Shown piece by piece: positions 35,010 through 36,549 of a DNA stretch of 64,000 nt (position 1 is its first letter; the number at the start of each line of letters is the position of its first letter). Source of the stretch: a bacterium. Lineage in GTDB: Bacteria; Armatimonadota; Zipacnadia; Zipacnadales; Zipacnadaceae. The position numbers were made by a program, and so were the translations under genes. The notes under the pieces were generated by a model. The model had not been told where the DNA came from. It did not search any database and saw nothing but the letters and a program-made list of their open reading frames with translations. Location of the stretch: positions 1,133-65,132 of the forward strand of contig JAUVXR010000013.1 of NCBI GenBank assembly GCA_030603495.1, read 5' to 3'.

Positions 35010-36549
<1,540 letters not shown>

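Follow-up and report, generated by a model that had tools for sequence, protein, structure and literature searches.

A variant EUB338/341F site with a compensated helix h5 in the 16S rRNA gene of a probable member of the Armatimonadota

Introduction

Mismatches between the 16S rRNA of Armatimonadota and the primer 341F are already known and have been in print since 2012. Klindworth et al. 2013, the source of the 341F/785R recommendation, names Armatimonadetes among the phyla that this primer pair fails to detect, and Thijs et al. 2017 (PMC5368227) gives ~59% as the share of Armatimonadetes in SILVA 123 that mismatch the 3' terminus of 341f. Mao et al. 2012 (PMC3445835) found the EUB338-III-type variant ACACCTACGGGTGGCAGC in 29% of OP10 sequences, indicating that the phylum is heterogeneous at the EUB338 site. 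The supplement tables of the same study do not list the UU351-352 variant (338F-14T15T) or 14T.

Within this phylum, which has been known as OP10 for ~25 years, the GTDB class UBA5377 was named "Zipacnadia" in work on Guaymas Basin sediments, where these classes were called understudied (Carlton et al. 2023, PMC10290634). The 3' part of the EUB338/341F region extends into helix h5 of 16S rRNA, whose regions 56 and 357-360 belong to the shoulder surface of the 30S subunit that is contacted by domain II of EF-Tu, EF-G, IF2 and RF3 (Selmer et al. 2012, PMC3335287).

Here, we describe a 16S rRNA gene that departs from the canonical sequence at this site. It lies in a stretch of 64,000 nucleotides, which was analyzed as a whole and is called the window below. 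The UU doublet at 351-352 and the compensating changes at 52-54 are details of the documented phenomenon.

Results

A complete rRNA operon with a variant priming site

The window carries an rRNA operon in the normal order, 16S-tRNAIle-tRNAAla-23S-5S (Table 1). Its 16S gene matches Rfam RF00177 with 1518.4 bits (gathering score 50) over model positions 1-1533 of 1533, untruncated, and its 3' end reads GGAUCACCUCCUUU, with the anti-Shine-Dalgarno sequence CACCUCCUUU. All 16S numbering was taken from an alignment with the real, annotated E. coli rrs gene (locus L032).

In this alignment the counterpart of the variant site is the canonical ACTCCTACGGGAGGCAGCAGTGGGGAAT, and five substitutions separate the two: G351U (35374), C352U (35375), G357U (35380), U358C (35381) and G359A (35382). 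The canonical counterpart of 35373-35380 is GGCAGCAG. The Rfam bacterial SSU consensus gives 351, 352 and 357 in upper case, as highly conserved positions, and 358 and 359 in lower case, as variable ones. The divergence at the EUB338/341F site that the initial annotation had reported is thus borne out by the alignment to E. coli; the end coordinate given there, 35385, is three bases too short for the 28-mer quoted, which runs to 35388.

Table 1. Coordinates in the window of the rRNA operon, the variant 16S positions and the genes downstream of the 5S gene.
Feature	Position	Strand	Basis
Complete bacterial 16S rRNA gene, 1540 nt	35008..36547	+	Rfam RF00177, anti-Shine-Dalgarno 3' end
U52 G53 A54 (canonical C A C), 5' strand of h5; pairs U52-A359, G53-C358, A54-U357	35059..35061	+	Rfam structure and E. 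coli alignment
G59 (canonical A59)	35066..35066	+	Accompanies UU351-352 in all UU-type sequences with readable 5' region
EUB338/338F/341F/357F target site, variant form ACTCCTACGGGAGTTAGCATCAGGGAAT (E. coli 338-365)	35361..35388	+	Sequence and E. coli alignment
U351 U352 (canonical G351 C352), unpaired linker between h14 and h5 3' strand	35374..35375	+	Rfam consensus structure: unpaired multiloop columns
U357 C358 A359 (canonical G U G), 3' strand of outer h5	35380..35382	+	Rfam consensus structure
U1404 (canonical C), h44, adjoins decoding centre, pairs with A1497	36423..36423	+	E. coli alignment; Rfam marks pair compensated
A1497 (canonical G), partner of U1404, sole 1492R mismatch	36502..36502	+	E. 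coli alignment, primer scan
tRNA-Ile (GAU), 16S-23S spacer	36826..36902	+	
tRNA-Ala (UGC), 16S-23S spacer	36989..37064	+	
23S rRNA gene, 3179 nt, insertions relative to E. coli	37314..40492	+	Rfam RF02541, 2745 bits, full length
5S rRNA gene	40688..40804	+	Rfam RF00001, 108 bits
ORF without family match, 197 aa	40913-41506		
ZorD-like SNF2-helicase/Mrr-nuclease fusion gene	41512-43773		

Compensation in helix h5

According to the Rfam consensus structure, h14 consists of 339-342/347-350 and is unchanged in the window, 351-353 form an unpaired linker, and 354-359 are the 3' strand of h5, which pairs with 52-58. The outer part of h5 has changed on both strands. CAC at 52-54 has become UGA and GUG at 357-359 has become UCA, all three pairs are kept, and no non-canonical pair is flagged among them; the two sets of changes lie ~300 nt apart. 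Compensatory changes had been expected in h13/h14, which are the wrong helices, because h14 (339-350) is invariant and the altered paired bases belong to h5. Changes on a partner strand are indeed present, and they are found in h5 at 52-54.

Covariation was assessed in 26 distinct sequence types from genomes, metagenomes and E. coli. Across these types, 98.8% of cells at the three h5 pairs are paired and the 3 pairs change on both sides, with a covariation score that was reached by 0 of 500 column shuffles, and slid registers are only 36-58% paired. The strand combinations are UGA/UCA, UAA/UUA, CGA/UCG, UAC/GUA, ACU/AGU and CAC/GUG, and each pair occurs in three or four Watson-Crick/wobble forms. 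We refer below to the h5 exchange, U351 U352 and G59 as the signature, and to sequences with U351 U352 as UU type.

Some members of the clade lack the outermost h5 pair: 13 UU-type loci (e.g. L006, L008, L012, L013, L020, L025 and L028) have U357 C358 C359 opposite U52 G53 A54 and hence a U52-C359 mismatch. Separately, a second, unrelated metagenome lineage combines G351 U352 with a fully compensated h5 swap, ACU at 52-54 and AGU at 357-359 (L082, L095, L100 and L114; in L066 and L087 the 3' strand alone was read). G59, the constant companion of U351 U352, would be at most a candidate tertiary partner of 351/352: G59 also occurs with G351 U352 in the second lineage (3 of the 4 readable sequences), A59 is retained in other G351 U352 sequences, and only 2-3 independent events are involved.

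Other features of the operon and its downstream flank

Two pairs of h44 are also exchanged in the window. The pair C1404-G1497, which adjoins the decoding centre and is highly conserved in the Rfam consensus, is replaced by U-A, and C1409-G1491 by A-U (36428 and 36496), so that both are compensated. Among the signature-bearing sequences in which both positions are readable, U1404-A1497 together with A1409-U1491 is confined to the window and L010, L015, L022, L074, L076, L084 and L097. The h31 region at 35970-35995 (E. coli 955-980) has the sequence GCTAATTGGATGATACGCCAAGAACC; its stem pair 962/973 shows a compensated change, with G-C in place of C-G, and its loop (966-969) is GAUA rather than GCAA.

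The 23S gene is longer than its E. coli counterpart (3179 versus 2905 nt). There is a 72-nt insertion after E. coli 284 (window 37602-37673), the helix-45 region (E. coli 1168-1184) has 37 + 78 nt (~115 nt) extra (window 38596-38726), and 22 nt are inserted after E. coli 1403. The helix-45 region is a classical site of intervening sequences, and here the segment 38585-38740 folds into one extended hairpin (-79.5 kcal/mol, z = -5.2). At the insertions L022, a near relative, aligns colinearly with the window; in more distant relatives the alignment is broken there.

Downstream of the operon, the 3'-terminal 73 nt of the 5S gene are duplicated as a direct repeat (40736-40808 and 43766-43838, 95% identical, 3,030 bp apart), and the two copies bracket a segment of lower GC content (~52% versus ~61% in the rest of the window). 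The first ORF of this segment has no match in Pfam, PADLOC, NCBIfam or PHROGs, and the stop codon of the SNF2-Mrr fusion gene falls inside the repeated 5S fragment. No integrase is visible in the island after the 5S gene. L022 is without the island, its 5S gene adjoining the homologue of window 43901 onward. Judged from its sequence, the segment resembles a small defence island that has inserted at the 5S 3' end.

We considered whether the 16S gene could be a decaying or divergent extra copy, either a pseudogene or part of a horizontally acquired heterogeneous operon, and not the working 16S. The alteration of conserved positions (351, 352, 357, 1404, 1497 and the h31 loop) and the mobile-looking island directly after the 5S gene could be taken as signs of this, but the Rfam match is full-length and high-scoring, the operon is complete with its spacer tRNAs, and the substitutions in paired regions are compensated (52-54/357-359 in h5 and 1404/1497 in h44), with only a handful of non-canonical pairs flagged in the two-thirds of the 16S gene that were inspected. 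Moreover, relatives carry the same changes in the same genomic context, which indicates vertical inheritance under selection. An extra copy is therefore a highly improbable explanation, and a genuine, functional 16S remains our preferred reading.

Distribution of the signature in genomes and metagenomes

GTDB was scanned, with one genome per GTDB species, for the pattern ACTCCTACGGGAGTTAGCANNNNGGAAT, into which UU351-352 is built. The scan returned 31 species genomes, all of them MAGs and 0 isolates, which suggests that cultured Armatimonadota would be without the signature. Most of the hits are titled Armatimonadota, Armatimonadetes, uncultured Armatimonadia or Candidatus Zipacnadia; the other titles are a few plain "bacterium", two candidate division WS1 and one Actinomycetes. 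The Actinomycetes-titled hit is a contig-edge fragment that aligns to the window over 394 bases with 89% identity. The genome of the window itself is not among the 31. The 16S identity of the 31 hits to the window ranges from 80 to 94.2%, so the signature spans a deep, multi-order clade and not one species. Within GTDB the 18-mer ACTCCTACGGGAGTTAGC appears to be restricted to the clade: those 31 genomes were the only ones matched by a longer pattern that includes it and has GGAAT four bases downstream.

In metagenomes, a scan of 241 million records, in which position 352 could be anything but C, yielded 82 stretches, most of them UU type, and the signature was found in about 60 metagenome records. 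Genome and metagenome loci together comprise 66 UU/UCAG, 13 UU/UCCG, 10 UU/UUAG and a few singletons. Many UU-type records are ~1.48 kb long, start with AGAGTTTGATCCTGGCTCAG and end with AAGTCGTAACAAGGTA, and so resemble long 27F/1492R amplicons. The clade can thus be retrieved by PCR with other primers. Nor is the group hidden from amplicon work, as 27F-to-1492R records carry the signature and 515F/806R match perfectly.

One of the loci is aberrant. In L013 (Armatimonadetes bacterium UBA5352) the distance from the 338 site to 16S position 1105 is ~380 nt greater than expected and the 16S aligns in parts, which suggests a large insertion or a mis-assembly; L013 also forms the long branch in the neighbor-joining (NJ) tree.

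Placement near Candidatus Zipacnadia

The genome closest to the window is L015 (Ca. Zipacnadia Meg22_1012_Bin_300), with 94.2% 16S and ~92% 23S identity. The best metagenome 16S match reaches 94.3%, and other Zipacnadia-labelled MAGs show 82-94% 16S identity. The GC content of the window, ~61%, is within the 55-70% of Zipacnadia (Carlton et al. 2023, PMC10290634). The class-III aminotransferase encoded directly upstream of the 16S gene has 88% amino acid identity to its counterpart in L015 and is syntenic in L015 and L010, and the downstream membrane protein has 69% identity to that of L022. A pyrophosphatase encoded 8 kb upstream (window 24815-27118) has relatives at 96% and 86% identity, and among the matches listed its named relatives are all Armatimonadota, Armatimonadetes, Armatimonadia, Zipacnadales or WS1. 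L015, L010 and L022 come out as the relatives, in that same order, whether the 16S, the 23S or the flanking protein genes are compared. In an NJ tree confined to signature-bearing 16S sequences, the window groups with L015, L074, L076, L084, L097 and L010.

Based on 94% 16S identity and synteny, the window would be placed near Candidatus Zipacnadia / UBA5377 at the class level, and none of the retrieved genomes or contigs with a 16S gene is likely to belong to the same genus. The threshold for a genus reportedly lies at roughly 94.5% 16S identity, so that 94% points to at most a new genus.

The initial annotation had proposed a poorly sampled, deep-branching group, and in its strongest form this would be an unrecognised lineage at the rank of phylum or class, overlooked by surveys. 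Consistent with such a lineage, 31 of the 31 signature genomes are MAGs with no isolate, the nearest 16S in GTDB and the metagenome collections is only ~94% identical, and the classes concerned have been called understudied (Carlton et al. 2023, PMC10290634). However, the relatives are labelled Armatimonadota or Ca. Zipacnadia, i.e. they belong to a described class, named in 2023, of a phylum with some 25 years of history as OP10; the identity value allows a new genus at most; and the primer mismatch itself is documented for Armatimonadota. We regard an unrecognised phylum or class as very improbable, and the proposal of a deep-branching group is not upheld.

Since mis-assembly of 16S is common in metagenomes, the variant site could also be an assembly or sequencing artefact, or the operon a chimeric insertion in an unrelated contig. 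Several observations speak against this. The identical 28-mer is present in dozens of independent assemblies as well as in amplicon records, and three of the substitutions are exactly compensated ~300 nt away; this recurrence and the compensation in h5 argue that the sequence is not an error. In addition, the 16S, the 23S and the flanking genes share relatives in the same order, and the pyrophosphatase 8 kb upstream has, among the matches listed, only Armatimonadota-named relatives. Taken together, these data effectively refute an artefact, the least credible of the explanations considered, and favor an authentic 16S gene in an Armatimonadota genome.

Matches to common primers and probes

An exhaustive best-site scan of the window was carried out with 33 common primers and probes. 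EUB338-I has 2 mismatches, which are adjacent, EUB338-II has 5 and EUB338-III has 4; the site is identical neither to the EUB338-II target ACACCTACGGGTGGCTGC nor to the EUB338-III target. The primers 341F (Muyzer and Klindworth versions), 338F, 343F and 357F have 3 mismatches each, at positions 7, 6 and 1 from the 3' end. The 3'-terminal base of the 341F-type primers is thus mismatched, 16S position 357 being U in place of the canonical G, which sets the G of the primer opposite A. These counts confirm that the site mismatches EUB338-I, II and III and that 341F/357F meet at least three mismatches, including 3'-proximal ones.

No mismatch was found for 27F/8F, 515F/515F-Y, 785R/805R, 806R/806RB, 799F, 907R/926R, 1100R and 1525R. 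One mismatch each was found for 518R, 519R, 1046R, 1391R, 1392R, 1406F and 1492R, three each for 967F and 1193R, and seven for 63F. C1404U is the only mismatch to 1392R and 1406F, and the 1492R mismatch is G1497A, at a distance of 6 bases from the 3' end of the primer. The further claim that other universal sites are intact is correct for 515F and 806R and off by this one base for 1492R.

In a crude RNA-RNA estimate, which is not a proper DNA-RNA model of FISH, the EUB338-I duplex has -38.8 kcal/mol with the canonical target, -29.8 kcal/mol with the window target and -29.3 kcal/mol with an EUB338-III-type target. The three mismatches to 341F-type primers, the 3'-terminal one included, together with the EUB338 mismatches imply that the clade should be under-counted. 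Under-counting in V3-V4 surveys and EUB338 FISH is thus plausible, and the reduced detection by both methods that had been forecast is a reasonable prediction from the mismatches and the duplex estimate. Proofreading polymerases can trim a 3'-terminal mismatch, and dG-rU at 352 is only a wobble; therefore, the under-detection may be partial.

Discussion

We conclude, with a probability of roughly 0.9, that the window contains a genuine, functional 16S gene of an uncultured member of the Armatimonadota near Ca. Zipacnadia (UBA5377), and that the variant form of its EUB338/341F site has become fixed in a large clade as a lineage signature. According to this reading, which draws on sequence comparison, the exchange of GUG for UCA at 357-359 affects the 3' strand of the outer three h5 pairs, and CAC at 52-54 has changed to UGA in step, preserving the geometry of the helix as U52-A359, G53-C358 and A54-U357. 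Helix h5 is part of the 30S shoulder surface on which EF-Tu, EF-G, IF2 and RF3 dock with their domain II, and we infer that the pair-preserving swap would keep the geometry of this GTPase-docking surface. G351U and C352U fall in the unpaired stretch that links h14 to h5 and are fixed together with A59G. The combined changes leave 341F/338F/357F and EUB338 I-III mismatched, with 27F, 515F/806R, 785R and 926R fully matched.

A more far-reaching interpretation is that the signature (the h5 swap, U351 U352 and G59, joined in the genus-level clade of the window by U1404-A1497 and A1409-U1491) reflects co-evolution of the shoulder and decoding site with the translation GTPases, or a change in how h44-targeting drugs (e.g. 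aminoglycosides or hygromycin) bind. We consider this unlikely. If it were true, the ribosome of an Armatimonadota clade spanning classes would differ in function, and the signature would amount to a clean synapomorphy on which a probe specific to the clade, GCTAACTCCCGTAGGAGT, could be based.

For the lineage signature that we favor, the significance is practical and not conceptual, and the primer-evaluation literature already states it. The clade comprises at least 31 species-level genomes, all uncultured, and includes the sediment class Ca. Zipacnadia. V3-V4 forward primers and EUB338 probes mismatch, whereas V4 primers (515F/806R) and 27F match; consequently, surveys by different methods should disagree on the abundance of the clade. 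The 18-mer ACTCCTACGGGAGTTAGC could serve as an "EUB338-IV-like" supplementary probe or as a 341F variant, and candidate oligonucleotides for the clade are the probe GCTAACTCCCGTAGGAGT and the primer CCTACGGGAGTTAGCAT.

Among described lineages, the 16S of Ca. Zipacnadia / UBA5377 carries the identical signature at 52-54, 59, 351-352 and 357-359, and its nearest member shares U1404-A1497 and the upstream aminotransferase gene with the window. The window differs from Ca. Zipacnadia in overall 16S sequence, with a best identity of only 94.2-94.3%.

A second comparison is with the targets of EUB338-II and EUB338-III, variants that reportedly occur in Planctomycetes and Verrucomicrobia. The likeness is that in these groups, too, a lineage-specific change in the EUB338 target defeats the standard probe, and the EUB338-III-type target shows a duplex loss similar to that of the window in the crude estimate above; that target, however, has its own probe, EUB338-III. 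The changes themselves differ. Those of the EUB338-II and EUB338-III targets fall at 340 and 349 (and 353 in II), mainly in the h14 stem, whereas those of the window fall at 351-352 in the linker and leave h14 untouched. The window target has 5 mismatches to probe II and 4 to probe III and is thus not rescued by the EUB338 I-III mix.

The nearest parallel concerns 341F itself (S-D-Bact-0341-b-S-17). As far as the available text of Klindworth et al. 2013 and Thijs et al. 2017 extends, the Armatimonadetes mismatch involves the same phylum, the same primer and the same 3'-terminal base, 16S position 357, and U351 U352, G59 and the compensating changes at 52-54 are not spelled out there. Compared with that text, the present data add that U351 U352, G59 and the changes at 52-54 occur in combination in at least 31 species genomes. 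With U357 at 35380 of an Armatimonadota 16S, the window belongs to the published class of 3'-terminal 341F mismatches.
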